From NCBI GenBank assembly GCA_024280885.1, contig JAJRPF010000055.1:39674-103673 (forward strand): DNA of 64,000 nt. The letters run 5' to 3'. Below are positions 2,680 to 59,291 of the stretch, piece by piece. The position numbers were made by a program, and so were the translations under genes. Positions within the stretch are counted from its first letter, which is position 1, and every line of letters begins with the position of its first letter. The DNA comes from Planctomycetota bacterium (GTDB taxonomy: Bacteria; Planctomycetota; JAJSAM01; JAJVHW01). The notes under the pieces are model-generated. The model had not been told where the DNA came from, did not search any database, and was given only the letters and a program-made list of their open reading frames with translations.

Positions 2680-5181
2680 TCAGTCGCCGAAGTTGAGGCC
2701 GGTCAGGATGATGTCAGCCAAGTCTGCCGTTTGCGGGAGCGGTCTCGTGCCGGAGAAGATGTAGAGCGACCCGCGGAGACCTCCCGCCACGGGCGCGAAG
2801 TCAACGACGATCACCTCCGCAAGACCATCACCGTCGAGATCCTGTGCGCTCAGACGATCACCGAAGCGACTCAGATCGACCAGGCCTTCGATGGTGAAGT
2901 CCGCGTCTGACGGTCCGCCCGATGTGAGCGAAGGGCCGCCCTCAAAGACCGCGGTTAGACCGCGGTTCTCGGCCTGCACCGCGGCGAGCGAGTCCCCGAT
3001 CAACAGGTCGCCTTTCGCGCTGCCCGAGACGTCGGCGATTGCCAGTACCGTACCGAACCTGCCCGAGGCCGCAACGCTGTCGTCGGTGAGCTTCACGTCG
3101 GCCGTCGAGCTGTCTCCGTCCGCCAGCCCCGCGCCGCCTGCAAAGATGAAGACGCTCTGCACTTTGGCGCCGACGCTCTGCGCGTGAACGACGATGTCCG
3201 CCGCGCCGTCGCCGATCACATCGCCGACGGCGAGGAAGTTGCCGAGGAGGTCCGAGTCCGCTGTGGCCGTCAGCGCGACGTCCGCGTCTGTGAGCGGCCC
3301 GCTCACGAAGCCCGCCCCGCCGAAGAACACGTAGACAACTCCTCGGGGCTGCAAGTTCGAGAACGCCGAGCCGATGATCAGGTCGTCGATGCCGTCGCCG
3401 GAGACATCCGCCGCAGCGACGTTCAGCGAGAATATCCCGTTGGATTGCGGTCCCGTGAACGTCACGGCGGGGACGGCATCACTTGTGAGAGCTGCGCCGC
3501 CTTCGTACACGACCGTCTCGTGCATCCCGAAGACGCTCGGACTCTCAATTGCTGTTGCGATGTCCAACGTCGCATCGCCTACGAACTGACCGACGGTGAT
3601 GGTCACGAGAGCGCGGGCGCTGCGACCGCCGCCACGCAGCACGAAGTCAGCGTCCCTCTCGACATCCAGGGATCCCCGGAACTCCGCTCCCCCGAGGAAG
3701 ATGAGTATCCGTCCCATGCCACCAGCGACGGGATCGGCGATACTGAGTATGAGATCGTCGATCCCGTCGCCGCTCACGTCCGCCACAACGCGCGCGTTCC
3801 CGAGGCGGCTGTTGGACGCCGTTCCTTGGAATACGACGTCGCGTGCGTCGATCCCCCGCGTCGTCAGTCCGGGTCCGCCCAGGACGACGCGGACGCGATT
3901 GACTCCACCCGAGCTATCCGTCACGACCAAGTCAGCCAGACCGTCATTGTTCAGGTCCGACCGGACAGTTGGCAGACGACCAAACGCCCGGAACGCGGTG
4001 AAGTGGCTGACGGGGAATGAGACCGTGCCCGCGCTCACGTCCACCGAGTAGGGCCGCGGGACGATGCGCGTTCGACCGCGCCCGTCTCGTTCCACGACAA
4101 TCAAGCTCGAGAAGTCATCGCCGAATGCAACGGCGTCGAAGGGGATCGACACGGTGACGGGTTCGTCGAAGACCTGGCCGACGGGACCGAAGAAGACGGT
4201 GGGTCCGGCGGCTCGCACGTCGTCCGCGAGGCCGCCTCGGATGGGAGGCGCCGAACCGATCAGAAGGGAGGTCGGTAGCGTGAGCGCACCCGGCGGCACC
4301 AGCAAAGACGCCTCGCCCAATCCGAAGTTGTTCTCAGGCGGCACTGCGAATTCCCCTCCGGCGGCCGGGATCACAACGCCGATCACGAAGTCGTCCCCGC
4401 CGCCGGCTCCCACGTCTATCCCCCTGACCGTGATGTTCCGCTTGCTCGTCTTGGGCGCCTTGATCTTCACCGTCACCCGCGCGGCGCCCACTCCCCCGAC
4501 GCCCGCGACGAACAGCCGGTAGTCGCCTCCCCGGGCGAGTGCGATCTTCTTCGCCTTGTGTTGCTTGTCTTGCGTAGCCGGTTGATCGATGTCGATCCGG
4601 TCCGCGTCCCTGAGACGCTCGATCCGCACGAGTCGCGGAAGTGCGTCTGATCCACGCGCAGGTTTAGCGACGACCGTGGCACGCGCGCCCGGATCGACGG
4701 CGAAGTCGATGGCGACTTCTCCGTCTGACAGTTGCACGTCGCGACTGAGCTTGGTCTGGCTCTTCCACTTCACCTTGAGCTGGTAGTCGCCGACGTTCTC
4801 ACCGTCTCCCGTCACCTCGATGCGGTACGTGCCGGTGGCGGGCACGAGGACGTTCTTCGCAGTCGATCCCGACTTCCCCTTCGCGCGGATGAACTCCGCT
4901 GCGATGTCGATACCATTCTCATTCAGCACCCGGAACGAGACGCGCGGAGCGGAGCTGCCACTCTGCTTCTTACCCTTCGGCCTCCTACCCGTGGCGACCA
5001 CCGAGAGCAGCGCGTCGTTCGGAAGTGTCACTCGCAAGATCTCGACCTCGGTGGCCGGCGAGAGAGAGCCCGTTACCTTGTCGCCGTTCGTGATGGCGAC
5101 ATCGACGCCCGCACGTCCCATCGAGGCGAACGAGAGCAAGCTGGTGGTGAGAAGCAGAGCGTGCAGGAGCGTCTGGGGCAT
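2680..5181 (-). CDS. Secreted FG-GAP (integrin-alpha-like) repeat protein with C-terminal pre-peptidase (PPC)-type domain
   Basis: Repeated VADVSGDGIDDLI / GDVIGDGAADIVV FG-GAP/Ca-binding motifs; C-terminal ~110 aa (ITNGDKVTGSL...GTYRIEVTGDG...YQLKVKW) looks like a PPC domain; signal peptide MPQTLLHALLLTTSLLSFASMGRA; ATG at 5181 preceded by GGAG (ORF track starts at 5220). Confidence 0.75.
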   Translation of the reverse strand: MPQTLLHALLLTTSLLSFASMGRAGVDVAITNGDKVTGSLSPATEVEILRVTLPNDALLSVVATGRRPKGKKQSGSSAPRVSFRVLNENGIDIAAEFIRAKGKSGSTAKNVLVPATGTYRIEVTGDGENVGDYQLKVKWKSQTKLSRDVQLSDGEVAIDFAVDPGARATVVAKPARGSDALPRLVRIERLRDADRIDIDQPATQDKQHKAKKIALARGGDYRLFVAGVGGVGAARVTVKIKAPKTSKRNITVRGIDVGAGGGDDFVIGVVIPAAGGEFAVPPENNFGLGEASLLVPPGALTLPTSLLIGSAPPIRGGLADDVRAAGPTVFFGPVGQVFDEPVTVSIPFDAVAFGDDFSSLIVVERDGRGRTRIVPRPYSVDVSAGTVSFPVSHFTAFRAFGRLPTVRSDLNNDGLADLVVTDSSGGVNRVRVVLGGPGLTTRGIDARDVVFQGTASNSRLGNARVVADVSGDGIDDLILSIADPVAGGMGRILIFLGGAEFRGSLDVERDADFVLRGGGRSARALVTITVGQFVGDATLDIATAIESPSVFGMHETVVYEGGAALTSDAVPAVTFTGPQSNGIFSLNVAAADVSGDGIDDLIIGSAFSNLQPRGVVYVFFGGAGFVSGPLTDADVALTATADSDLLGNFLAVGDVIGDGAADIVVHAQSVGAKVQSVFIFAGGAGLADGDSSTADVKLTDDSVAASGRFGTVLAIADVSGSAKGDLLIGDSLAAVQAENRGLTAVFEGGPSLTSGGPSDADFTIEGLVDLSRFGDRLSAQDLDGDGLAEVIVVDFAPVAGGLRGSLYIFSGTRPLPQTADLADIILTGLNFGD

Positions 5182-5320
5182 GCGTGGATCTCCGGAGGCA
5201 GGCGCGCACTGACGCGGCACCGCGCGAGGGACGCGTGCATGCTATCTCTTTGGCGGGCGGAGAGTGGCCTGATGCAAGATCTCCGCTCTCCCGGTCTGCG
5301 AGCGCGCTCCTCGCGCAGCG

Positions 5321-13692: not shown

Positions 13693-14064
13693 CTACTTGT
13701 CTTCGCCCAAACCGTCGAAGTACTCGCGAATGCCGTCGCGGTAGCGGCGCGGGATGACCTCGGCATCGAGGGGCGCTTGCGCGTCGGCACGCGCACGCTC
13801 GATGGCGGCGCGTCCGCCGGGCGTCATCTCCCCGGGCTTCGGAAGGCCGCGGAACGTCGTTACCGAGATCCGCCCCCGCGGGTCAATGCGACCGCGCACG
13901 CGTTCTGTCTTCGTTCCGGTTTCCAGGGTCTCGTCGAAGGGGACACCGCTGCCGCTTCCAGTCCCTTCGCCACCGGTTCCATTGCCGTTTCCCTGTCCGC
14001 CGTTGCCGTTGCCGTTTCCATTCCCATTGCCGTGCAGACCGCACGATCCGTTACCGCCGCCCGT
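13693..14064 (-). other. Open in-frame continuation of the upstream coiled-coil ORF past a single TGA: Gly/Asn/Ser-rich linker plus ~69-aa C-terminal domain
   Basis: Same frame as 14065..15390. Codon-periodic GNGNGNGNGNGGQGNGNGTGGEGTGSGSG, then ...RGRIDPRGRISVTTFRGLPKPGEM...IREYFDGLGEDK ending TGA at 13693. Could be a readthrough/Sec extension, a nonsense-mutated gene tail, or an independent small ORF (ATG 13899). Confidence 0.35.
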
Positions 14065-15390
14065 TCAGGTCCCGCCAGCGCCGCCGAGGCGCAACTTGCG
14101 ACCGCCGGACATCTCGCCGCCGCCCTGTCGCAGCATGTCGGCAAGATCCTCCATCCCGGCCATCTCGTCGAGCGAGTCGAGCAACTCCTGCAACTCCTCG
14201 CGCGACAACTCCGAGATATCCATCGAGTCCGACTCGCCGGCTTCGCTCTGCAGGTCCTCGTAGCTTTCGCCCTGCTCCATGCGCGAAGCCAGTTCGCGCA
14301 TGCGCTCGGCGATCTTCTGCAGGAGGTCCTCATTGCCGATTGCGCGGAGCTGCTCGCGCAGCTTGTCGGCCCCCATGGCGCCGGCTGACTCCATCGCCTT
14401 GCGCAGCGCATCGAGTCGCGACGCCATGTCGCGGAGGTCCTTCGCCGACGGTGGCTCGCCGCTCTCGGCGGCCTTGTCCAGGCGCTCCTGCAACTCCTTC
14501 ATCTGTCGGTCGAGACTCTCGAGACCGGTCTTCGACATCTGCCGCAGAAGCTCGGCCAGTTGACGGTTGGTCTTGGCCGCCTCGGGGTCCGACGTCGGCT
14601 TCTTCAATCCCGCGCGGCGACGCGCGGCGTCGCGGGCCAGATCCGAGAGTTCGTTCAGTTTGCGGAGCGCAACTTCGCGCCGGGGCGGCGTGCGCACCAT
14701 GGCCTCGGCCTGCTTCTGAATTTGCTGCGCGACGCGCTCCAGATCGACCTCCTCACGCTCCTTGGCACCTTCCTTGACGCGCTTCGCGGCCTCGGCCATG
14801 CGACGTGCGACGTCCGCGATGCGGTCTTCGTCGGCGAGTCGTGCGGCCTTCTCGACCGGCGTCTCTCCAGCCTGGATCGGCGGCTGGATCATGTAGAGCC
14901 CGCCCGCGACGGCAAGCGCCACGGCGGCGGTCGCGAGCGGTCGCCGGAGAACGCGTGGGCGGAACGCCCGGCGGAGCGCGTCGCGCGTGACGTGGGCGGC
15001 ACTTGTGGCTGCGTCCTCGACGACGAGCGGCGCCATCGGTCCGGCCGTCCGCCCCTCGCTCTGAGCCCAGACCGACGTGGATACGCGCTCCTGCAACCCG
15101 AGGGCGCGGTCGGCGCGGGCGGCCAGTGCGCGGCGGTCGTAGCGCCGCCCGAGGATGCCGATCAGAGGGACGATCAACGTGGCGGAGAAACCGGCGACGG
15201 CGACATGCAGCAACTCGGGGCGCCACCAACCCGTCGCACGGAGCGCGATACCGAGCGCCAGGAGAAGCGCGCCGCACGCACTGCCCCATTGGAGGTCTTC
15301 GAGCGCGCCTGCCAGTGCGAGGCGCGCACGCACACGCGTGAGCAGTCCGTCCGTATTGTGCATTGCTGTCTTGTGCATTGCGTCTGGCAT
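14065..15390 (-). CDS. Membrane protein with two N-terminal TM helices and a long acidic coiled-coil region
   Basis: 441 aa; TM segments ALLLALGIALRATGWW and FSATLIVPLIGILG; then K/E/R/A/L-rich heptad-like sequence; ends at TGA 14065-14067 but the frame stays open for a further 372 nt. Confidence 0.55.
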   Translation of the reverse strand: MPDAMHKTAMHNTDGLLTRVRARLALAGALEDLQWGSACGALLLALGIALRATGWWRPELLHVAVAGFSATLIVPLIGILGRRYDRRALAARADRALGLQERVSTSVWAQSEGRTAGPMAPLVVEDAATSAAHVTRDALRRAFRPRVLRRPLATAAVALAVAGGLYMIQPPIQAGETPVEKAARLADEDRIADVARRMAEAAKRVKEGAKEREEVDLERVAQQIQKQAEAMVRTPPRREVALRKLNELSDLARDAARRRAGLKKPTSDPEAAKTNRQLAELLRQMSKTGLESLDRQMKELQERLDKAAESGEPPSAKDLRDMASRLDALRKAMESAGAMGADKLREQLRAIGNEDLLQKIAERMRELASRMEQGESYEDLQSEAGESDSMDISELSREELQELLDSLDEMAGMEDLADMLRQGGGEMSGGRKLRLGGAGGT

Positions 15391-30997: not shown

Positions 30998-33004
30998 ATG
31001 CCGAGCATGGAAACACTGATCACAGGCGCAGCCATCTTGGGGGCCGTGTTCTTCCTCGGAATGGCCGTCCTCGTCTTCATCTCCCGCATCTACCGCAAGG
31101 TGGACCAGGGTAAGGCGCTGATCGTCAACACGATGGCTCAAGAGCCGGACGTCACATTCACCGGACGCCACGTCATTCCGGTCTTTCACCGAGCCGAGGT
31201 AATGGACATCTCGGTCAAGACGATCGAGCTCGACCGGCGCGGCAAGGAAGGCCTCATCTGCGGCGACAACATCCGCGCCGATATCAAGGTCATCTTCTTC
31301 GTCCGCGTCAGCAAGACGAAGGAGGACGTGCTCAAGGTCGCGCAGGCGATCGGCTGCGTCCGCGCGTCGGAACAGCGAACACTGGAAGACCTCTTCATCG
31401 CCAAGTTCTCGGAAGCCTTGAAGACCGTCGGCAAGCAACTCGATTTCATCGATCTGTACACCAAGCGCGACGAGTTCCGCGACCAGATGATCCAGCTGAT
31501 CGGGCGCGATCTGAACGGTTACGTCCTGGAAGACGCGGCGATCGATTACCTCGAACAGACGCCGCTTGAGATGCTCGATGAGCACAACATCCTCGACGCT
31601 GAGGGCATCCGCAAGATCACCGACCTCACGACGAAGGAACACATCCGCACCAACCTCTTCACAAACGAAGAGACGATGAAGATCAAGAAGCAAGATGTCG
31701 AGCGCGCCGAGGCGGTCTTCGCGCTGGAACGACAGGAGGCCGAGGCGAAGGCGAAGCAAGAGCGCGAGATCCGCACGGTGCAGGCGCGCGAAGCCGCCGA
31801 AACCCATAGCGTCGAGGCCGAGGAACGCCTGAAGGCCGAAGGTGCCCGGATCAAGACCGACGAGGAGCTCGGCATCCAGGAACAGAACAAGATGCGTCAG
31901 ATCGAAGTCGCGGAGAAGAACCGCGAACGCGTCATCGGCGTCGAGGAAGAGCGCGTCCTGAAGGACCGGCAGCTCGAGGCGATCGCCCGCGAGAGGGTCA
32001 CGGAACTCGAAGACATCGCGAAGGAGAAGGCGCTTGAGGTCGAACGCAAGCTGATCCAAGAGGTCATCCGCGAACGCGTGGCCGTTGAGAAATCGGTCGC
32101 CGTCGAAGAAGAGGCGATCAAGGAGATCCGCGTCGTAGAGGAGGCCAGCCGCACGAAACAGTCGGCTGTCATCACCGCGGAGGCGGAAGCGCAAGAGGCG
32201 CTGATCAAGGTCACGACAGCGGCAGAGGCCGAAGAGGCGGCCGCGCGTCACGCCGCCAAGAAGCGCGTTGTTCTTGCCGAAGCGGAACTGGAAGCGTCCG
32301 ACAAGGAAGCCGCCGCGAAGATCCGTCTGGCCGAGGGCATCCAGGCCCACGAAGCCGCCACGGGACTCGCAGCCGCGCGCGTCAAAGAAGCCGACGCGAC
32401 CGCGCACGAGAAGCACGGCTTGGCCGACGCGAAGGTGCGGCGCGAGATCGGCGTGGCCGACGGCATCGCCATCAAGGAGAAAATGTCCGCCGAGGCCGAT
32501 GGTCTCACGGAGAAGGCCGAGGCCATGAAGCTGCTGGACGGGGTCGGTCGCCAGCACGAGGAGTTCCGCATCCAACTGGAGAAGGACAAGGACGTCGAGA
32601 TCGCGGCGATCGACGCGCAGCGGCGTATCGCAGAAGCACAGGCCGAGACGCTCGGCGAGGCGTTCAAGTCGGCGGACATCGACATCGTCGGCGGCGACGG
32701 ACAGTTCTTCGACCGGATCGTCGGTGCGGTTGGACGGGGCAAGGCCATCGATGGGTTCATGCGCGGTAGCGACACGGCGCAGACCATCTTGGGCGACTAC
32801 ACCGAGGGCCGACGTAGTCTGCCGGAAGACGTGAAGGACATCCTCTCGGACCCTGCCGTCTCGACGGGTGACCTCTCCAATCTCACACTCTCAGCACTCT
32901 TCCTGAAGCTCATGCAAGGTGCAGATGGCGACACGCGCGAGAAGCTCTCGAAGCTCGCCGAACACGCCAAGGATCTGGGCCTGACGGACGCCAAGAAGAA
33001 CTAG
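30998..33004 (+). CDS. Flotillin-like SPFH/band-7 protein (YqiK family)
   Basis: N-terminal TM helix, SPFH domain (ALIVNTMAQEPDVTFTGRHVIPVFHRAEVMDISVKTIEL...), then ~350 aa of EA-rich coiled coil typical of flotillins. Confidence 0.85.
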   Translation: MPSMETLITGAAILGAVFFLGMAVLVFISRIYRKVDQGKALIVNTMAQEPDVTFTGRHVIPVFHRAEVMDISVKTIELDRRGKEGLICGDNIRADIKVIFFVRVSKTKEDVLKVAQAIGCVRASEQRTLEDLFIAKFSEALKTVGKQLDFIDLYTKRDEFRDQMIQLIGRDLNGYVLEDAAIDYLEQTPLEMLDEHNILDAEGIRKITDLTTKEHIRTNLFTNEETMKIKKQDVERAEAVFALERQEAEAKAKQEREIRTVQAREAAETHSVEAEERLKAEGARIKTDEELGIQEQNKMRQIEVAEKNRERVIGVEEERVLKDRQLEAIARERVTELEDIAKEKALEVERKLIQEVIRERVAVEKSVAVEEEAIKEIRVVEEASRTKQSAVITAEAEAQEALIKVTTAAEAEEAAARHAAKKRVVLAEAELEASDKEAAAKIRLAEGIQAHEAATGLAAARVKEADATAHEKHGLADAKVRREIGVADGIAIKEKMSAEADGLTEKAEAMKLLDGVGRQHEEFRIQLEKDKDVEIAAIDAQRRIAEAQAETLGEAFKSADIDIVGGDGQFFDRIVGAVGRGKAIDGFMRGSDTAQTILGDYTEGRRSLPEDVKDILSDPAVSTGDLSNLTLSALFLKLMQGADGDTREKLSKLAEHAKDLGLTDAKKN

Positions 33005-33012
33005 GCCGACCC

Positions 33013-36000
33013 GTGTCCGACGACAAACAGTCAGCCAACGCAGACCCCGGGGGCGGAGCGCAGACGATCGAAGAGGGGACCTACGAGGTCATCCGCAACC
33101 GGCTTCTCTCCCACGGGAAGGAGCTGGCGGGGAAGGCCGACTCTCTCAACGAAGCGCGCATCGAGATCTTCGGCGGTTCGCGCATGTCGATCATCGGCAA
33201 CGAGCGTGTGCGCACGGAGAACAACTGTGTGCCGCGCGATATCGTCGCAATCGGCAACGAGATCCTCTTCGGCTACAACGTCTTCCTCGGGCTCAAGACC
33301 GAGACGAAGCTCGCTGACGTCTTCTCACTGCAGCGGTTCGAGGCAACCGCGACCGGGTTTCAGTTCTCCGCCGCAACCGGCGCAGAGGGGCCGATCTCCG
33401 GTCGCAACCCGGTGGCTGACGAGGTCTTTCAGAAGCATTTCCGCGACCTCTATCAGTACTACAAGGATGCGAAGCTGCAGTCCCTCCGCAAGGTGGACGG
33501 CAAGCTGCTCGCGATCTTCCAGGTGGGGCGCTACCTGACCGACGTCAAGGGCTTCCAGTGGGCACTCGGAGCCGATGGATCGGTCACGTACATCGACAAC
33601 CTGGGTGATCGCCACAACCGTTACCCACCGACGCACGACTTCGAATGGACCGCGACGACGCGCGAGAATCACATCAGCGGGCAACACCCGCACGTCTCCG
33701 TTCTCGACGAGGTCTTCGTCGAGACGGTGGGTGGCGATCTGACGGTCAAGGTCGAAGACAATACGACCGACGGACTCGGTATCTATCGCGAGCCGGTGGT
33801 CGACGCCGATCAGGCGCTCGACGACGCACAGATCGACTACGCGAAGCTTGGCTCGCTGATCCTCATGCGCGTCAAGCCATACCTCGAAGAGGAGCGCCGC
33901 TACCTCGTCTTCAACACGCTGACGCGACGCGTTCATCGCATCGACGCGATCGGCAACGCTTGCGTCCAGTTGCCCGAAGACCACGGCATCATCTTCCCTG
34001 GCGGTTACTACCTGCAGCGCGGCGAGACGAAGGTCTTCGACGCCAACATCGAAGGCATGACGATCGAGCGCGTCGTGCACTCCCCCAACGGCGAGGACGT
34101 GCTCTACGTCTTCCACCGCACGCGCGATGGCGTCTACGTCCTCCTGCCGTACAACATGATCCGCAAGGAAGTGGATACGCCGCTGCACTGCCGCGGCTTC
34201 TGCCTCTTTGAAGACGGGCGTATGATCCTTCTGCGCGCGAGCGGTGACGAGCCCACACGCGTCCACGCAATGCAGATCTGGCAGACGCCGTTCACGAGTG
34301 ACGTCTTTGCTGCACAGGCCCCGACAGGCGACTCGTATCTCGAGAAGATCGGCAACGCAGATCTCGTGCGCGGGATCTCGGATTGCCTCTCGATCCGGCG
34401 CATGATCGAGGAGCAATCCCCGACACGCGAGATGTACGAGGAGTTGATCGCCGCGACGACGCGCGTTCTCGACCACTACCACTGGCTCGCCGCCACGGAG
34501 ATCGGCGATTTCCAAGCGACGTTGCGCGAGGTGCTGCAGACGGCCGAGTTGGTTGTGGACGAGTTCGAGAAGGTGCAGGTGCTACGCGGTGATGCGGCGA
34601 AGGCCATGGCCGTTGCCGAGGAACGCAAGACCGAGCTCTTCAGATCCATCCGTCCGAGCGAGTGGAAGTCGGTCGACGACTTTGTCGGCGCCCTCTCGGG
34701 GATGCGCCAGGAGCGCGGGCGGCTGATCACTCTGCGCGCGGTTCGTTACGTGGACGTCGCGCGCATCGAGCGCTTCGAGGAAGAGGTCGTCCAGCGCTTT
34801 GGCGAGGTCAGCGCGAAGGCCGTTGACTTCCTCGTCGACGCGGATGCTTTGCGTCCCTATCACGTTCGCATCGAGGAGGTCGAAGCCGACATCGAGAGCG
34901 TCACGAAGGTAACAGACGCCGTGCCGCTGGCGGAGTCGCTTGAGTCGATTGGCGAGGGTCTCGATCTGCTCACCGAGGTCGTCGGCGGTCTGGAGATCGA
35001 CGACACGACCGTGCGGACACAGATCCTGGAGTCGATCAGCGAGGCGATGGCCGCGCTGAACCGTGTTCGCGCCCTGGTCACGGCACGCCGGCGTGAGCTG
35101 GGGCACAAGGAAGGCGTGGCCGAGTTCGGCGCGCAATTCGCTCTCTTCTCGCAGAGCGTGGCGTCCGCGCTGGCGCTGGCGGAGACACCCTCGAAATGCG
35201 ACGACCAGATGTCTCGCTTGCTCGTGCAACTCGAAGAGCTCGAAGCGAAATTCAGCGAGTTCGACGATTTCCTTGAGCAACTGACCACGAAGAGGGAAGA
35301 GGTCGTCGAGGCGCTTGGTGGCAAGAAGCAGATGTTGTTGGACCAACGTCAGCGACGGGCCCAGCAGTTGATGCAGGCCGTGGAGCGCATCCTGGGCGGC
35401 GTCGCGCGGCGCGCGAGTGCGTTCAGCGAGATCGACGACCTGAACGCGTACTTCGTGTCCGACCCGATGATCCTGAAGGTGCGCGATCTGGCCGAGAAAC
35501 TCCGCGACCTCGACGACTCGGTCCGCGCGGACGAGGCGGACTCGCGCCTGAAGTCTGCTCGCGAAGATGCCGTGCGCTCACTGCGTGACAAGCGCGACAT
35601 CTTCGAGGAGGGCGGCGCGGTCATCCGTCTGGGCAAGCACGCGTTCAGCGTCAACACGCAAACCCTCGATCTTACGATGGTGCCGCACGCCGACGGGATC
35701 GCACTGCACCTGACCGGTACGGACTTCCGCGAACAGGTCGAAGACGACGCCTTCGCAGCGACTCGTACGTACTGGTCGCAGGACGTGGTCTCCGAGACCG
35801 CAGAGGTCTACCGCGCCGAGTATCTTGCGTACTCGCTACTCGCCGCCGCCGAGCGCGGTGAGGACGGCCTGAACATGGCGCGCTTGACCGAGGCTGCGCT
35901 CGACGAGACAAAGCTCCTCGCAGTCGTACGCGAGGCCGCGGGGACACGCTACGACGAAGGCTATGAACGCGGTGTTCATGACCACGATGCGGCACTGATA

Positions 36001-38571
36001 CTGGGGCGCGTTGTCGGTCTCTATCGTTCGGCTGGGCTCTTGCGTTTCGCGCCGGCAGCGCGCGCCGCAGCATGCCTGTCGTGGGCGTTTGGACCGGAGG
36101 ATCAGTCCGCTGCGCGCGCGCGTCTTCGCCGTCGGGCGCAGAGCTTGCAACGACTCCGACAAGCGTTCACCCAGAGCGACGCGATCGTGTTGCTCGAACG
36201 CGATCTGACCGAGATCGTCGTGGCGTTCCATGCTGATGCGGGGCTCGAAGTGAGTGAAGGGGACGGACGCGTCGCCGGCCGCTATCTCTTCGAGCAACTC
36301 GGTATCGCGGAGGAACGCTTCGTCGCAGGGGGAGAGGCGTCGGGCGTTCTCTCCGCCTTCCTTGCGCATGTGGACTCGCTCGGGTCGCGACGGGACCTCG
36401 AAGAGGATCTCGAACGACTCGACGGCGAGTTGGCGCAGCAGCACGCACTGCTCTCGGCGTGGCTGACAGCATGGGCGGACTCGCGCGACGAAGCAGAGGC
36501 CGATGCGGCCCGTGCCGTGCTGCCCGAGGCTGTCGCGTTGCAACTGATCGGCGAACGCTTGCCGCGCGAAGTGCAGACGGCGACTTCGCGGACGACCGTC
36601 GAGGGACTGCTCGGTCAGCACAAGCGGATCGCAGAGCGTCAGATGGACGTTCGGCTGGACGCATTTCTCGGTCGACTCTCGCGCTTCGCACACGAGCGGG
36701 TGCCTGGCTATCGCGCCTACCAGACGCGCCGCGCCAAGTTGCTTGCCCGTGAGAAGAGCCGCCTCCGGATCTCGGAGTTCATGCCGCGGGTGCTTTCGTC
36801 ATTCGTACGCAACCGCCTGATCGACGAGGCGTACCTGCCCCTGATCGGGGACAATCTCGCGAAGCAACTCGGCGCCCGCGGCGCGGCGAAGCGCACGGAC
36901 CTGATGGGGCTCTTGCTCCTCATCTCGCCCCCCGGCTACGGCAAGACGACGTTGATGGAGTACATCGCGAACCGCCTCGGGTTGGTCTTCATGAAAATCA
37001 ACGGTCCGGCGTTGGGGCATTCCGTCACGTCGCTCGATCCGGGCGAGGCCCCGAATGCCACGGCGCGTCAGGAAGTCGAGAAGATCAACCTGGCGCTCGA
37101 GATGGGCAATAACGTGTTGCTCTACCTCGACGACATCCAGCACACGCACCCAGAGTTGCTCCAGAAGTTCATCTCTCTGTGTGACGCCCAGCGCAAGATC
37201 GAGGGCATGTGGCGCGGGACGACGCGCACATACGACCTGCGCGGAAAGAAGTTCGTCGTCTGCATGGCAGGCAATCCCTACACGGAATCGGGCGAGCGGT
37301 TCCAGGTGCCGGACATGCTGGCGAATCGCGCCGACGTCTACAATCTGGGCGATGTGCTCGGCGGCAAGGAAGAGCTCTTCGCGCTCAGCTACATCGAGAA
37401 TGCGCTCACGTCGAATACGGTGCTGGCCCAGATCGCCACACACGACCACCGCGACATTCATCCGCTCGTGCGCATGGCGCAGGGGGCGGAGATCCCGGCC
37501 TCGGAATTGAACCACCAGTACTCGCGCGTTGAACTCGACGAGTTGCTCTCCGTCCTGCGCAAGGTCCTGCGTGTCCAGGAGGTCCTACTCGCCGTCAATC
37601 GCGAGTACATCCGTTCCGCGTCGATGGACGACGACTATCGCACCGAGCCGCCGTTCCAGTTGCAGGGCAGCTATCGCAACATGAACAAGCTGGCCGAGAA
37701 GATCGTGCCGGTGATGAACGACGCCGAGCTCGAGGCACTGCTTGTCGATCACTATCTGGGAGAGGCGCAGACGCTGACGTCGGGGGCGGAGCAGAATCTG
37801 CTCAAGCTCTCCGAACTGCGCGGGCAGATGACGGAGGCCGAGCAGGCGCGGTGGACGGAGATCAAAGATGCGTTCGCGCGCCGCCGCATGATGGGTGGCG
37901 ACGACGACGATCCGGTTGTCCGCGTGACCTCGCAGCTCATTCGCTTGGGCGACAGCGTCGGCAGCATCGGAGAATCGATCCGCGAGGCCGCAGACGAGAG
38001 CCGCATTCGCCAGAAATCGTGGGAGCAAGCGCTGGTGACGCGTCGCGAAGCACAGGTCGAGACCGATGCCGCGCTCGTCGCCGCGCGTGACGATGAGGGC
38101 GAAAGGGACGCCGCCGCCGACGCTCCCGCACTCGCTGATGCACTGGCGCAGACGCTCGGTCCGGTCCTCGCGCAGCTCGAGGCGACACTGGTCACGCTCT
38201 CGAATCGGCAAACCCTGGCCGATTCCGCGCCATCAGCGGCGGCACGTGACGTGGCGGCTGGTTCAGCCGAAGACGATGCTGCAGACAAGGTCGCCACGCT
38301 CGCCGCGCGGCAGTCGGAGATCATCGAGGTGGGGCTCCTGCCCGTGCTGCGTTCCATGAACCAGAACCTCAAGATCTCGCGTGCTGTGTGGGAGCGTCTG
38401 GAGGGGGTGCAGCGACGGCTCGACGCGCTTGCTGGCAAGTCGGCAGCGAAGCGTGCCAAGAAGACTGCCAAGAAGGCGTCGAAGTCGGCGTCCAAGAAGT
38501 CCGGGGCGCAAGCGGCGGCGAAGCGGTCGTCCCCGTCGGGTGACGGTAACTCGGATCCGTCACCTGCGTAG
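33013..38571 (+). CDS. Giant (1852-aa) protein: N-terminal beta-rich domain, long coiled-coil middle, C-terminal MoxR/dynein-like AAA+ ATPase domain, basic C-terminal tail
   Basis: Walker A ISPPGYGKTT, Walker B LLYLDDIQH, sensor region FVVCMAGNPYTESGERFQVPDMLANRADVYNLG; starts 8 bp after the flotillin stop (GTG 33013); such proteins are often labelled 'DNA repair ATPase' without evidence. Confidence 0.7.
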   Translation: MSDDKQSANADPGGGAQTIEEGTYEVIRNRLLSHGKELAGKADSLNEARIEIFGGSRMSIIGNERVRTENNCVPRDIVAIGNEILFGYNVFLGLKTETKLADVFSLQRFEATATGFQFSAATGAEGPISGRNPVADEVFQKHFRDLYQYYKDAKLQSLRKVDGKLLAIFQVGRYLTDVKGFQWALGADGSVTYIDNLGDRHNRYPPTHDFEWTATTRENHISGQHPHVSVLDEVFVETVGGDLTVKVEDNTTDGLGIYREPVVDADQALDDAQIDYAKLGSLILMRVKPYLEEERRYLVFNTLTRRVHRIDAIGNACVQLPEDHGIIFPGGYYLQRGETKVFDANIEGMTIERVVHSPNGEDVLYVFHRTRDGVYVLLPYNMIRKEVDTPLHCRGFCLFEDGRMILLRASGDEPTRVHAMQIWQTPFTSDVFAAQAPTGDSYLEKIGNADLVRGISDCLSIRRMIEEQSPTREMYEELIAATTRVLDHYHWLAATEIGDFQATLREVLQTAELVVDEFEKVQVLRGDAAKAMAVAEERKTELFRSIRPSEWKSVDDFVGALSGMRQERGRLITLRAVRYVDVARIERFEEEVVQRFGEVSAKAVDFLVDADALRPYHVRIEEVEADIESVTKVTDAVPLAESLESIGEGLDLLTEVVGGLEIDDTTVRTQILESISEAMAALNRVRALVTARRRELGHKEGVAEFGAQFALFSQSVASALALAETPSKCDDQMSRLLVQLEELEAKFSEFDDFLEQLTTKREEVVEALGGKKQMLLDQRQRRAQQLMQAVERILGGVARRASAFSEIDDLNAYFVSDPMILKVRDLAEKLRDLDDSVRADEADSRLKSAREDAVRSLRDKRDIFEEGGAVIRLGKHAFSVNTQTLDLTMVPHADGIALHLTGTDFREQVEDDAFAATRTYWSQDVVSETAEVYRAEYLAYSLLAAAERGEDGLNMARLTEAALDETKLLAVVREAAGTRYDEGYERGVHDHDAALILGRVVGLYRSAGLLRFAPAARAAACLSWAFGPEDQSAARARLRRRAQSLQRLRQAFTQSDAIVLLERDLTEIVVAFHADAGLEVSEGDGRVAGRYLFEQLGIAEERFVAGGEASGVLSAFLAHVDSLGSRRDLEEDLERLDGELAQQHALLSAWLTAWADSRDEAEADAARAVLPEAVALQLIGERLPREVQTATSRTTVEGLLGQHKRIAERQMDVRLDAFLGRLSRFAHERVPGYRAYQTRRAKLLAREKSRLRISEFMPRVLSSFVRNRLIDEAYLPLIGDNLAKQLGARGAAKRTDLMGLLLLISPPGYGKTTLMEYIANRLGLVFMKINGPALGHSVTSLDPGEAPNATARQEVEKINLALEMGNNVLLYLDDIQHTHPELLQKFISLCDAQRKIEGMWRGTTRTYDLRGKKFVVCMAGNPYTESGERFQVPDMLANRADVYNLGDVLGGKEELFALSYIENALTSNTVLAQIATHDHRDIHPLVRMAQGAEIPASELNHQYSRVELDELLSVLRKVLRVQEVLLAVNREYIRSASMDDDYRTEPPFQLQGSYRNMNKLAEKIVPVMNDAELEALLVDHYLGEAQTLTSGAEQNLLKLSELRGQMTEAEQARWTEIKDAFARRRMMGGDDDDPVVRVTSQLIRLGDSVGSIGESIREAADESRIRQKSWEQALVTRREAQVETDAALVAARDDEGERDAAADAPALADALAQTLGPVLAQLEATLVTLSNRQTLADSAPSAAARDVAAGSAEDDAADKVATLAARQSEIIEVGLLPVLRSMNQNLKISRAVWERLEGVQRRLDALAGKSAAKRAKKTAKKASKSASKKSGAQAAAKRSSPSGDGNSDPSPA

Positions 38572-43951: not shown

Positions 43952-44560
43952 TCAGCCGTTCAGCGCTTCGTGTACCTTGCCGACCATTTCCGGGCCCGGC
44001 GTCAAGGTCGCGTCGCCGTCGTCTTTCCACTTCGAGGGGCAACCTTCGTTGGCCTTCTTCGAGAGGTAGACGTTGGCCTTGAACTTGCGCAGCAACTCAT
44101 CGATGTTGCGGCCCATGTTGTAGAAGTTGACCTCGGAGTTCATCAGCACGCCCTGCGGGTTGATGATGAACGTGCCGCGCAGACACAGGCCGGACGTCTT
44201 GTCGTAGACGCCGAACTGCCGACCGAGCTTGCCCGTCGGGTCGGCCCCCATCGGGTACTTGACGTCGGCCAGCTCACCCTCGTGGCGCTGCCACGCAAGG
44301 TGCACGAACTCGGTGTCGGTGCTGACGGTCACGATCTCGCAACCCATCCGTTCGAAGCGCGTGTACTGCTCTGCCAGAGCAGCGAATTCGGTCGCTCAGA
44401 CGAATGTGAAGTCGGCGGGATAGAAGAAGAGAACCGTCCACTTCCCGGCCTCCTTGGCCTCCGCCAGACTGAACCTCCCGAATCCGCCAGTCTTGGGGTC
44501 GAACGTGTTGATCTCGAAGTCCTTGACCTCGCGACCGAGGCCTACCTTTGGCTTGCTCAT
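43952..44560 (-). CDS. prxU: Selenocysteine-containing typical 2-Cys peroxiredoxin (AhpC/Prx1 family; PrxU-like), in-frame TGA = Sec at the peroxidatic position
   Basis: Track splits it into 44396..44692 and 43952..44347, which share a frame and are separated only by TGA at 44396-44398. The TGA sits exactly where the peroxidatic Cys belongs (FYPADFTFV-U-ATEFAAL; canonical FTFVCPTE). Resolving Cys present (NEGCPSKW). ATG 44560 preceded by AGGAGGA. Confidence 0.8.
44366..44382 (-). promoter_or_regulatory. Putative bacterial SECIS stem-loop (CUGCUC-UGGCA-GAGCAG) starting 14 nt 3' of the in-frame UGA
   Basis: 6-bp perfect stem with a 5-nt loop containing GG, at the spacing expected for a bacterial SelB-binding hairpin directly downstream of a Sec codon. 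Confidence 0.5.
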
Positions 44561-56396: not shown

Positions 56397-57875
56397 ATGC
56401 AACTCAGTTCTGTCATCAGCTCGGTCATCACTCCGGTCATCAGCGTGTCGGCTTGTGTTGGCGCGCTCCTTGCCGTATCCGCGGGGCCCGCGCACGCGGA
56501 GTGGATCAACCGGACCGAAAACGTGCCCGTCGCGCGCCTCGTTACGAACCTCGAAGCACGGATTGCGAAGAACCCGCGCGATGCTCAGGCGCACTACGTT
56601 CTGGCGCGGGTTCACAGCATGGCGTGGGCGCACGAGACGGAGGTTGTCGAGATCGAGCCGCCCGCGACAGACGCTGCGCTACCGACCTTCGCACCGTGGC
56701 AGAGTGTTCAGCGCGCACGGGAGGCGCAGAAGGGGCTCGCCGTCTCGGCGCCCTCCGAGACGGCGAAGACGCATTTCCATCGTTCCGTCTCACACTACCG
56801 GACCGCGGCGAAGCTGGACGGGAAGGCGTCGATCCACTTCATGGGGCTCGGGTACATGCTGCAGGACGGTGCGCGTTACGTGCAGTGGTTGCGCACGCCC
56901 GACGGCTCCGAGACGAAGACAAATCTCTCCGACGAGGAGATCGCGCGACACCAGGCGCTGGTCGCACGCCTCACGGCCGAGACGAAGGGCGATCGCGAGG
57001 TCGCGCGACGCAAACTGATCGCGGCGTTGCCCGCTGCCGCAACGGTTCTACGCTGGCACCTGCGGACCGAGGATGCCGGTGAGCGCGCGGCAGTCATCGA
57101 GTTGCTGCGTTACCACTGGCTCGACCTGGCGGCCGCGGCATACCGCAGGTCCCACACAATCGCACTGCCGAGCGATCTGGCGCAGGAGGCCCACGCCGAC
57201 GCGGGCGACAAGCCGCTGAGTCAGGAGTCCGGAGCGGCCCTCCTGGCAATCCTGCGGACGCGCGAGATGTCGAAGTCGATCGAGCAGGAGATCGCAACAC
57301 TCGAAGTAGTGCTGAAGAAGCTGAAGGCGCTCCCGCGCTGGGAGACGCCGATCGTCTTTCCGCTCTCCGGACAGCGACCACTCGTCGATCTGATCCATCC
57401 GACACGGCGCGTGGACTTCGATCTTGACGGTGACGGCGTCGCCGGGCGCTGGCCCTGGGTTCGGAGCGACGTCGGCATCCTGGTCTGGGACCCCGATGGC
57501 GACGGTATCGTCTCGTCGGGACGCGACCTCTTTGGCGGACGCACATGGTGGATCCGCTGGCCGGATGGATATGCGCCTCTCGCCGCCCTCGACGACAACT
57601 CCGATGGACACCTCGCCGGTGACGAGCTTCGCGGTCTCGGCGTCTGGGTCGATCGCAACGGCAATGCGATCAGTGATGCTGGCGAAGTGCGACCGGTCAC
57701 CGAGCTCCTCATCGCGGCGATCAGCGTGCGCAGCGACCACGAGCACGATGGGGTCCCCGCGACTGTTCGCGGGATCACATTCGCGGACGGTGCGACAGTG
57801 CCAACCTACGACTGGACGCCCGAGCGCGCAGTATCGGCGACAGAGAAGTCGCTACGAAAGCGTCTTGCTGAGTAG
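56397..57875 (+). CDS. Hypothetical secreted protein with C-terminal Asp-rich (calcium-binding-like) repeats
   Basis: Signal peptide ...GALLAVSAGPAHA; helical N-terminal half; C-terminal DxDGDG motifs (DLDGDGVAG, DPDGDGIVS, DDNSDGHLAG); ATG 56397 preceded by GGGAGA. Confidence 0.55.
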   Translation: MQLSSVISSVITPVISVSACVGALLAVSAGPAHAEWINRTENVPVARLVTNLEARIAKNPRDAQAHYVLARVHSMAWAHETEVVEIEPPATDAALPTFAPWQSVQRAREAQKGLAVSAPSETAKTHFHRSVSHYRTAAKLDGKASIHFMGLGYMLQDGARYVQWLRTPDGSETKTNLSDEEIARHQALVARLTAETKGDREVARRKLIAALPAAATVLRWHLRTEDAGERAAVIELLRYHWLDLAAAAYRRSHTIALPSDLAQEAHADAGDKPLSQESGAALLAILRTREMSKSIEQEIATLEVVLKKLKALPRWETPIVFPLSGQRPLVDLIHPTRRVDFDLDGDGVAGRWPWVRSDVGILVWDPDGDGIVSSGRDLFGGRTWWIRWPDGYAPLAALDDNSDGHLAGDELRGLGVWVDRNGNAISDAGEVRPVTELLIAAISVRSDHEHDGVPATVRGITFADGATVPTYDWTPERAVSATEKSLRKRLAE

Positions 57876-59291
57876 TTCCTTCATCTCCGGTACGCCGCCC
57901 TGGAAGAGCAGGTAGCCGTCGTGCGGTTCGCCGTCGGTGATCTCGCCGGCGACCGGCGTTGACATCAACTCGCGGACGCGGTCCGGATCGTCGGGATGCA
58001 GCCCGAGTGCCCACGACAGCTTGATGTACGCGGCTTCCGGCAGCATGTTCGCAAGGGGGATGACGCCGAGTTGGAGGATCTCGCGTCCGGTCTCGTAGAC
58101 GTTCATCTGCACGAAACCCCAAAGGGTCTGCAGCGTCATGTAGACCTGCACTCCGGCGTCGCGTGCGCGTTCGAGTGCCGGATAGACGAGCCGGTTGACA
58201 TGCCCGAGTCCGGTTCCCGCGATGATGATCCCGCGGTACCCCTTCTCGACCATCGCATCGACGATGTCAGCCTGCATGTTCGGGTAGTAGTAGAGGATCG
58301 TGACGCGATCGCAGAAGGCGGCTTGGATGGTGACTTCGCGATCGTCGCGGCGCGGTTTCCAGGTCTCGTGGATGTGCGTGAGTCCTTCGTCGTTCACCAT
58401 CGCGAGTGGCACGTCGCCGAGTGTGCGGAAGGTGCTCCGGTACGAGCTGTGCATCTTGCGCACGCGGGTGCCGCGATGCAGCAGGTTGTAGCTGTGCGAT
58501 GTGGGCCCGAGCATGCAGACCATGACCTCGGCGATCGGGCCGTGAGCCGCAGCGTAGGACGCGGCGATGAGATTGCGCGCGGCATCGGACGACGGACGAT
58601 CCGAAGAACGCTGACTGCCGACCATCACGATCGGTACGGGTGGGTCCTGCACCATGTACGAGAGCGCCGCCGCCGTGTGATGCATCGTGTCCGTGCCGTG
58701 CCCGACCATCACGCCGTCGCAGCCTTCGCGGATGGCCTTGCCGATCCGTTCGGCAAGGACGAGGTATTCCTCGCGCCCCATATTCTCCGAGAAGACGCCG
58801 AAGAGCTTCTCGGTCTCGAGATTGCAGACGTCGGCGAGTTCCGGTACGGAGCCGTAGAGCTCGCCGGGGGTGAACGCCGGGATCACGGCTCCCGTGCGAT
58901 AGTCGAGACGCGATGCGATGGTGCCGCCCGTCCCAAACAGCACGACGTTCGGCTTCGAGTCGTCGCGCGGGAACTCCTTCTCCGGGACCTTGTAGATCGC
59001 CTTGCGATAGCCCGTCTTCGTCAACTCGGTGATCGTGTCGTAGCGCAGCCCGACGTTGTAGCCACTCTCGAGTTTCAGGACGAGATGCTCGGCGTCGGAG
59101 GTCTCCGAGCGCGGGAGTACGAGACCCTCGAAGCGTCCGGATGAAGTTACCGCGACGACCGTGGACCAGACCGTCACGTGCGACTGTTTCAGAAGGCCGA
59201 GAGCGGGCTCACGATAACCCTTGTAGTCCTCCGCGTCGGCCACCTCGTCCGCGGCCCCAGCTCCGTTCGGCCCAACGCTCTTCGTATTCAT
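57852..59291 (-). CDS. gatD: GatD-like subunit of archaeal-type Glu-tRNA(Gln) amidotransferase (asparaginase-fold glutaminase)
   Basis: N-terminal GatD-specific domain followed by an asparaginase domain with VVLFGTGGTIAS and ...GHGTDTM... motifs; ATG 59291 overlaps the gatE stop (ATGA). Confidence 0.75.
   Translation of the reverse strand: MNTKSVGPNGAGAADEVADAEDYKGYREPALGLLKQSHVTVWSTVVAVTSSGRFEGLVLPRSETSDAEHLVLKLESGYNVGLRYDTITELTKTGYRKAIYKVPEKEFPRDDSKPNVVLFGTGGTIASRLDYRTGAVIPAFTPGELYGSVPELADVCNLETEKLFGVFSENMGREEYLVLAERIGKAIREGCDGVMVGHGTDTMHHTAAALSYMVQDPPVPIVMVGSQRSSDRPSSDAARNLIAASYAAAHGPIAEVMVCMLGPTSHSYNLLHRGTRVRKMHSSYRSTFRTLGDVPLAMVNDEGLTHIHETWKPRRDDREVTIQAAFCDRVTILYYYPNMQADIVDAMVEKGYRGIIIAGTGLGHVNRLVYPALERARDAGVQVYMTLQTLWGFVQMNVYETGREILQLGVIPLANMLPEAAYIKLSWALGLHPDDPDRVRELMSTPVAGEITDGEPHDGYLLFQGGVPEMKELLSKTLS

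Follow-up and report, generated by a model that had tools for sequence, protein, structure and literature searches.

A conserved in-frame UGA in a planctomycete coiled-coil membrane protein gene as a probable selenocysteine codon

Does the TGA that closes a coiled-coil membrane protein gene on a planctomycete contig end its translation, or does it specify an amino acid within a longer protein? The question arises on the minus strand of a 64,000-nucleotide stretch of Planctomycetota DNA (contig JAJRPF010000055.1, positions 39,674 to 103,673; hereafter the window). There, a 441-codon open reading frame (ORF) at 15390..14068, whose last residues are ...RKLRLGGAGGT, is closed by a TGA at 14067..14065, and the same frame runs on for 123 more sense codons, from TGGGNGSCGLHGNGNGNG (its start at greater length, TGGGNGSCGLHGNGNGNGNGNGGQGNGNGTGGEGTGSGSGVPFDETLE) to IPRRYRDGIREYFDGLGEDK, as far as a TAG at 13695..13693, that is, for 372 nt with the stop included. 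The answer that appears most probable, at roughly 0.85, is that this TGA is a selenocysteine (Sec) codon, Sec442, of a 565-residue selenoprotein. It draws on the conservation of the UGA, the continuity of the frame, purifying selection downstream of it, constraint on the RNA of a hairpin that follows it, the fit of that hairpin to models of the selenocysteine insertion sequence (SECIS), and the presence in the window of a second gene interrupted by UGA. An earlier note on this DNA had described an ORF of 441 amino acids (aa) ending ...LGGAGGT-TGA at 14065, a frame open for 372 nt past it and the ORF at 13693..13899 as its continuation, and translation bears this description out, that GTG-initiated ORF being the tail of the frame. 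The hairpin CGUGC-GGUCU-GCACG that it had placed about 20 nt past the UGA is present as well, with a stem that begins 19 nt after the UGA. The parts of the locus, some of them delimited on an AlphaFold2 (AF2) model of the continuous homologue P0008 with its confidence score (predicted local distance difference test, pLDDT), are as follows.

13693..15390, minus strand: full recoded coding sequence as proposed, 565 codons (Sec as codon 442) plus TAG, from translation and from the continuation in 20 clade loci
14065..14067, minus strand: in-frame TGA, proposed Sec442, in the motif GG-T-U-[S/T/A]-G-G; TGA in 16 of 16 aligned loci
14030..14046, minus strand: SECIS-like hairpin UCGUGC-GGUCU-GCACGG, which encodes S-C-G-L-H-G; loop at 14040..14036
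13900..14064, minus strand: low-complexity linker rich in Gly and Asn, aa 443-497, with Cys450 and His453, from sequence
13696..13899, minus strand: conserved C-terminal domain, aa 498-565, ...RIDPRGRISVTTFRGLPKPGE...IPRRYRDGIREYFDGL, from substitution rates, distant relatives and AF2
14116..14868, minus strand: long helical/coiled-coil region, about aa 175-425, from AF2 on P0008 (helices 172-425)
14884..15282, minus strand: N-terminal membrane module, from sequence and from AF2 (pLDDT >90 over P0008 residues 1-160)

Whether the two sides of the TGA belong to one protein can be judged from the relatives of the gene. A search with the joined protein, in which X stood at the stop position, returned 23 strong homologues. 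Of these, 21 had 392-441 residues or were shorter fragments, and matched only the part before the TGA; those short homologues whose sequences were fetched had the same ...GG(T) end residues. The exceptions were P0008, which is continuous over 569 residues, and P0021, a frame-shifted call of 635 residues. The DNA of 21 related loci was then read, seven from Planctomycetota metagenome-assembled genomes (MAGs), one from a JGI metagenome contig and 13 from contigs found via proteins. All but the P0008 locus make up a set of 20 loci, drawn from different MAGs and metagenomes and forming one clade, with 17 distinct sequences around the site and amino acid identities of 43-97%; a metagenome scan with protein alignment yielded no more than one additional locus. 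In this clade the codon at the site is TGA in 20 of 20 loci and never TAA or TAG, whereas at the true ends of these genes all three stop codons, TAG, TGA and TAA, occur. The U-containing forms are monophyletic, with P0008, a single 569-aa ORF in the same operon, as their sister.

Beyond the TGA, the frame is open and in phase in all 20 loci. It extends over 116-149 codons in 13 different lengths, the linker differing among orthologues by whole codons only, and ends in a common domain, ...DPKGRISVTTFRGLPKPGE...IPRRYRDGIRxYFDxL. In this C-terminal domain the ratio of nonsynonymous to synonymous substitution rates (dN/dS) is 0.07-0.37, at a dS of about 0.5-1.2 (Nei-Gojobori); these are the lowest values of the gene, below those of its N-terminal and coiled-coil portions. 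The linker is itself under coding constraint, and its Gly-rich pattern, ending in a G[TP]GG.G.G.G core, is common to relatives that are single ORFs. Starts that could serve a separate downstream gene are few: in 7 of 16 loci no in-frame ATG, GTG or TTG lies in the interval from the UGA to the core of the domain, and no start column is common to half of the 16. At these loci gene callers give a protein of 430-441 aa and an arbitrary small ORF of 54-131 aa.

Distant relatives have the same composition. When the 123-residue tail was searched by phmmer against 1.8 billion representatives, it matched 190 proteins, and in most of the 150 listed among these 190 the match lay at the extreme C-terminus of proteins of 510-650 aa, behind the same Gly-rich linker; among the distant relatives, 88 with a length of 450 aa or more have this architecture in a single ORF. 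Because of the purifying selection, the missing starts, the fused distant relatives and the single ORF of P0008, the family forms one polypeptide, and the clade of the window needs recoding of the UGA to make the whole protein. The coding nature that the earlier note had attributed to the region past the TGA is thus upheld by in-frame conservation and low dN/dS. The same note had set against it the case of orthologues that uniformly stop at this position and lack the downstream domain; the stop codon is uniform, and no orthologue without the domain was found. The comparison that it had proposed gives, accordingly, a clade that keeps both the TGA and the in-frame domain, and distant relatives that have a continuous ORF of 510-650 aa.

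A downstream signal that could direct such recoding is provided by the hairpin at 14046..14030, the sequence of which is unique within the window. Counted with a flanking U.G pair, it has its stem 19 nt and its loop 24 nt after the UGA. In a DNA alignment of 17 distinct loci the block TCGTGC GGTCT GCACGG(C) is invariant, whereas the Gly codons around it differ freely at their wobble positions. Together with the TGA and the open frame, the hairpin returns in all 20 clade loci that were read, far more often than chance would explain. The consensus structure from RNAalifold is a hairpin of 8 bp, the closing pair of which is G.U in 13 loci, G-C in two, C-G in one (L008) and G.G in one; in L008 both sides of that pair have changed, a compensatory replacement of G.U by C-G. 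Across 197 conserved degenerate columns of the codon alignment, synonymous entropy averages 0.95 bits; S-C-G-L-H-G is the sole stretch of the gene in which it falls to zero. The Gly of the loop is encoded by GGT in 15 of 15 loci, a codon that makes up only 9.2% of Gly codons in these genes, and the Ser of the hairpin by TCG in 16 of 16. The absence of synonymous variation and the fixation of GGT and TCG therefore indicate a constraint on the RNA and not on the peptide alone.

The consensus of the bacterial SECIS (bSECIS) calls for a loop of 3-9 nt of the form N1-G-[G|U]-N-N2 on a stem of 4-16 bp, placed 16-37 nt from the UGA, with a minimum free energy of at most -7.5 kcal/mol (2026 review, PMC13188914). 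Throughout the clade, the hairpins lie within the loop, stem and spacing ranges of this model, with a GGUCU loop and a stem of 6-8 bp; the loop variants GGUAC, GGUUC, GGUCG and CGGAG (the last in L008) all fit the loop formula. Loop and UGA are separated by 18 nt in 14 distinct loci, by 21 nt in two and by 24 nt in the window, and the free energies range from -7.4 to -12 kcal/mol, with values of -9.9 to -12 in most loci. The earlier note had suggested testing a SECIS model here, and the loop, stem and spacing of the post-UGA hairpin agree with one, the energy of the window copy being borderline. No other nucleotide stretch of the gene is as constrained as this hairpin, which the note had called weak. 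The copy in the window is the least canonical: an extra GGTAAC (Gly-Asn) widens the gap between UGA and loop from 18 to 24 nt, and an A stands in place of a stem-extending G, with -7.4 instead of -9.9 kcal/mol.

The hairpin also resembles a well-known signal. It shares the 9-mer GGUCUGCAC (DNA GGTCTGCAC) with the SECIS of Escherichia coli fdhF, a sequence that 5419 genomes carry within fdhF at 100% identity. In fdhF as in the modal orthologue of the present gene, the arrangement is TGA, 18 nt and then GGTCTGCAC, which thus occupies +19..+27 after the UGA; in both genes a short hairpin, whose apical loop starts G-G-U, comes after the in-frame UGA. The likeness ends there. The window protein is unrelated to formate dehydrogenase, the proposed Sec lies in a disordered Gly-rich linker rather than within a folded active site of the redox or metal type, and no column-aligned Cys homologue was found. 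The window hairpin also lacks a lower stem and an equivalent of the bulged U that is U17 in fdhF.

Two further loci deserve mention beside the hairpin. In L003 (Planctomycetota MAG CBDFJG010000001.1, 7294..7380), two in-frame TGAs lie ten codons apart, GGT-U-SGGDGSGGT-U-TGGG. The first is followed at 20 nt by the hairpin GUUCAGG-CGGGA-CCUGAAC, whose 3' arm holds the second TGA, and the second at 24 nt by the hairpin CGUCGUGC-AGUUC-GUGCGGCG. The locus appears to carry a tandem duplication of the Sec site and would then encode a putative double-Sec protein. The 635-aa P0021, from an ENA contig, was considered as a second continuous homologue and rejected, being a frame-shifted gene call. After ...LDEMG it continues with an Arg-rich, off-frame peptide, of which the segment HLKLRRVVRSARQRR back-translates to ACCTGAAGC...GTCGTGCGGTCTGCACGG; in this reading, a back-translation from the protein alone, P0021 also appears to carry the TGA and the hairpin.

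Does the source organism decode UGA as Sec at all? The window carries a second gene that bears on this point, found by a loose scan for TGAs followed by hairpins.

43952..44560, minus strand: AhpC/TSA peroxiredoxin with an in-frame TGA at 44398..44396, at the position of the peroxidatic Cys (PADFTFV-U-ATEF), from translation

With Cys put in at the TGA, its product matches Pfam PF00578 at E=1.9e-34, and a hairpin, GCUGCUC-UGGCA-GAGCAGU (-10.3 kcal/mol), begins 12 nt past the UGA. The motif of known Sec-peroxiredoxins is PxxxTxxU, which the sequence P-A-D-F-T-F-V-U fits; with the AhpC/TSA fold and the downstream hairpin, the gene is, by its sequence, a classic Sec-peroxiredoxin. Its TGA is probably the 'first in-frame TGA' of the earlier reader. 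Since the window holds such a gene, the organism very probably decodes Sec, as the earlier note had taken to be evident. The peroxiredoxin and the coiled-coil gene have in common the genome and a UGA followed by a hairpin with a GG-containing loop, and would rely on one decoding system. In the peroxiredoxin, however, Sec replaces the defined catalytic Cys of a thioredoxin-fold enzyme of which Cys homologues abound, whereas the coiled-coil protein has neither a one-to-one Cys homologue nor a known catalytic site. Generic scans of the window for in-frame TGAs, by frame criteria and by GC content at third codon positions, were too noisy to be of use. Among the selenoprotein candidates that have been listed for planctomycetes are FG-GAP/ASPIC-UnbV proteins in which the UGA is aligned to Gly (PMC4807772, Table S9). 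The window encodes an FG-GAP repeat protein of 846 aa (2680..5220, minus strand), and no in-frame TGA was seen in that copy.

How the insertion would proceed can be outlined from the known bacterial pathway. SelB carrying Sec-tRNA(Sec) would bind the G-G-U apical loop of UCGUGC-GGUCU-GCACGG, which would act as the bacterial SECIS, and Sec would be delivered to the UGA in the A site during translation, to give one protein of 565 aa. This product would consist of a three-helix membrane anchor, a helical/coiled-coil region of about 250 aa, a disordered linker that begins ...GGT-U-TGGGNGS-C-GL-H-G... and a C-terminal domain of about 68 aa, and past the anchor it would probably be extracytoplasmic. 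Where Sec insertion fails, the ribosome would release a truncated form of 441 aa; bacterial Sec insertion competes with termination, and this form is therefore probably made as well. We infer the actual use of SelB and of Sec at this site, and equally the chemical role of the residue, from sequence comparison.

A number of observations weigh against Sec insertion. The hairpin of the window is the weakest of the set and has the 24-nt spacing, and RNAfold of its 50-nt context favors another fold; the minimal hairpins of the window and of L013, both at -7.4 kcal/mol, just miss the energy cut-off. The stem is invariant and shows nearly no covariation, so that covariation support comes from the one closing pair. 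The loose scan for TGAs with hairpins returned 11 open-frame TGAs with SECIS-like hairpins in the window, mostly in non-coding junk, and the structural SECIS criteria alone are therefore not specific. Rfam gave no match at its gathering threshold in the whole window, and an Rfam scan of the site by E-value only a chance-level match to a frameshift element (E=3.8). Most known selenoproteins have Cys homologues, which serve prediction pipelines as a criterion although the mechanism does not require them, and here no homologue has a Cys column-aligned to the UGA, P0008 included; a Sec in a disordered Gly-rich linker is also atypical of bacterial selenoproteins. Last, none of selA, selB, selC and selD is found in the 64-kb window, and no tRNA, tRNA-Sec included, in the window or in 18 loci. 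Full selA/selB/selD sets are known in some Planctomycetes (PMC4807772).

Two of these points, the failure to see Sec machinery directly and the lack of a Cys-aligned homologue, would suit a SelB-independent readthrough, in which a near-cognate tRNA (e.g. Trp, Cys or Arg) is accepted at the UGA, perhaps with the aid of the hairpin, to give a selenium-free full-length form beside that of 441 aa. Frame continuity, dN/dS and the missing start codons fit this explanation equally well. It is nevertheless improbable: it leaves unexplained that the codon is always TGA, that G-G-U is retained at synonymous positions and that the match to the SelB-binding loop of fdhF occurs at the same spacing, and it accounts neither for the pairing of each UGA of L003 with a hairpin of its own nor for the second UGA-interrupted gene, the peroxiredoxin with its TGA at the catalytic Cys. 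High-level UGA readthrough stimulated by a hairpin is not known as an established bacterial mechanism. Less probable still is that the TGA is a true stop and that the Gly-rich and C-terminal parts are translated separately, through re-initiation or from their own start, into a small protein, as the two-ORF annotation by gene callers and the GTG at 13899, which in the window could start a 68-aa ORF, might suggest. The starts and lengths of the small ORFs are inconsistent, in 7 of 16 loci no in-frame start codon precedes the core of the domain, no start is conserved, and separate genes would have no need to keep phase over 13 linker lengths. The linker is moreover constrained as coding sequence and has the Gly-rich pattern of single-ORF relatives, and both the sister P0008 and the distant relatives are fused.

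The remaining explanations can be given hardly any weight. The earlier note had listed a recent nonsense mutation or pseudogene, slippage in the repeat and a sequencing error, to which an assembly error in the window can be added, and slippage is conceivable insofar as the (GGCAAC)n tract beside the site is of low complexity; the comparative data reject them all. Loci as distant as 43% identity, 20 in all and each assembled independently, have the same TGA. So does an independent assembly with a 97%-identical gene (P0001), which ends at the same residue as the window ORF and speaks against a sequencing error there. The strong purifying selection on the downstream domain weighs against these explanations as well, as does the monophyly of the U-containing forms, which indicates ancient retention. 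Equally remote is a genome-wide reassignment of UGA to sense, e.g. to Gly or Trp (genetic codes 25 and 4), even though the context is Gly-rich and Gly would suit the linker. TGA ends 17 of 26 Pfam-supported genes of the window, of which it is the main stop codon, and it terminates this very gene in many orthologues; only two in-frame TGAs that interrupt a conserved coding frame were identified in the window, one of them at a catalytic Cys.

If Sec is inserted at codon 442, its surroundings in the family offer some indication of what it might do. In 82 full-length relatives without UGA, Cys makes up 3.2% of residues at the junction between helix and linker and 0.22% in the coiled coil, a 14-fold difference. 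At least one junction Cys is found in 58 of the 82 and at least two in 47, mostly as CxxC. The linker is of low complexity and does not permit alignment at the level of single residues. This enrichment suggests, from sequence, a metal- or redox-dependent function of the family. Some of the relatives (P0167, P0073 and P0164) have four or more CxxC units, like the DnaJ-type CxxCxGxG zinc-finger repeats. In the Sec clade, a U...C pair falls at the same junction, as U-x5-C in most loci and as U442-x7-C450 in the window, followed by x2-H. Because the pair is found where the relatives are enriched in Cys, Sec442 is hypothesized to form, with Cys450 and possibly His453, a selenylsulfide or a metal-binding site that takes the place of the Cys or CxxC clusters. 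The Cys and the His may equally be by-products of the UGC and GCAC arms of the hairpin. A C-x-x-H-G motif common to non-Sec relatives was also considered; it was seen only in P0055, treated as chance and dropped.

A comparable arrangement is known from the eukaryotic selenoprotein S (SELENOS), in which C174 and U188 form a 'stapled' selenylsulfide loop (PMC13524514). The two proteins are alike in architecture only, both being membrane-anchored and helical, and both having thereafter a disordered Gly-rich segment with Sec and a partner Cys. They have no homology in sequence or fold. SELENOS depends on a eukaryotic SECIS in the 3' untranslated region and has its Sec as the penultimate residue at the C-terminus, whereas in the window protein Sec would be internal, with a linker and a folded domain after it, and the selenylsulfide is hypothetical. 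A wider proposal, which is speculative and at present somewhat doubtful, would place Sec outside any folded pocket, in the disordered and probably periplasmic tether of a MoxR-VWA-ABC envelope protein, as a Sec442-Cys450(-His453) staple or soft-metal clasp that replaces CxxC or Zn-ribbon-like clusters. The protein would then be a bacterial analogue of SELENOS, and the supply of selenium might set a switch between isoforms of 441 and 565 aa.

As for the protein itself, Pfam and NCBIfam contain no family for either half or for six distant full-length relatives, and the coiled-coil region gives only weak coiled-coil-type matches in both. The three hydrophobic helices of the membrane module lie near aa 37-55, 60-81 and 152-169, and the loop that connects the last two is rich in Arg. 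In the AF2 model of P0008, this helical module (residues 1-160) is predicted at pLDDT >90, helices extend to residue 425, residues 426-515 are disordered (pLDDT <50) and correspond to the Gly linker, with a start that corresponds to the Sec site, and two C-terminal helices follow at pLDDT about 80. A Foldseek comparison of the model with the PDB found no meaningful structural relative (best E=0.1). By the positive-inside rule, the N-terminus is probably cytoplasmic, and the coiled coil, linker and C-terminal domain extracytoplasmic.

The gene lies in a conserved operon, composed of an ABC ATPase, an ABC-2 permease, the selenoprotein candidate, an ABC-2-like permease, a 963-aa VWA/GATase1-like protein, a MoxR AAA+ protein, a DUF58 protein and a BatA/VWA protein. 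This order resembles the MoxR-DUF58-VWA operons (BatA-like, of the 'aerotolerance' type) with ABC-2 transporter genes; the present family itself has no Pfam or NCBIfam model. No selenoprotein was found described in MoxR/VWA operons in the literature, and there is none in the catalogue of 119 families. Elsewhere in the window, adjacent genes for GatD (Asparaginase + GatD_N) and a GatE-like protein (GatB_N + GAD) occupy 57852..61354 on the minus strand, an archaeal-type Glu-tRNA(Gln) amidotransferase pair that is unexpected in a planctomycete-like genome. On the plus strand, a large conserved pair occupies 30998..38571: a 668-aa SPFH/Band-7 protein and, after it, a protein of 1852 aa that matches DUF3686 ('ATPase involved in DNA repair') at E=9e-204 and also has DUF7902 and an AAA domain.

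Recoding by SelB and SECIS is well known; the family is new, being absent from the 119 catalogued prokaryotic selenoprotein families and from the NCBIfam models. Neither BSepDB nor the deep-Sep paper mentions Planctomycetes or a comparable family, and deep-Sep explicitly states a limitation for selenoproteins without Cys homologues. Current pipelines would miss the family because they rely on aligned pairs of Cys and Sec, which it does not have. Given how closely the hairpin resembles the SelB-binding loop of E. coli fdhF, a test with a heterologous reporter in E. coli looks realistic. If Sec insertion is confirmed, a selenoprotein family overlooked by these pipelines would be added, the members of which are annotated as two hypothetical ORFs, so that all public annotation of the clade would be wrong. 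Confirmation would also place selenium in an uncharacterized MoxR-DUF58-VWA-ABC-2 envelope system of Planctomycetota and provide the first chemically suggestive residue for it. The protein would be a rare case of a bacterial Sec in a disordered linker, and both the purpose of Sec outside a classical redox fold and the question of whether recoding of UGA sets the ratio of the isoforms would become testable.

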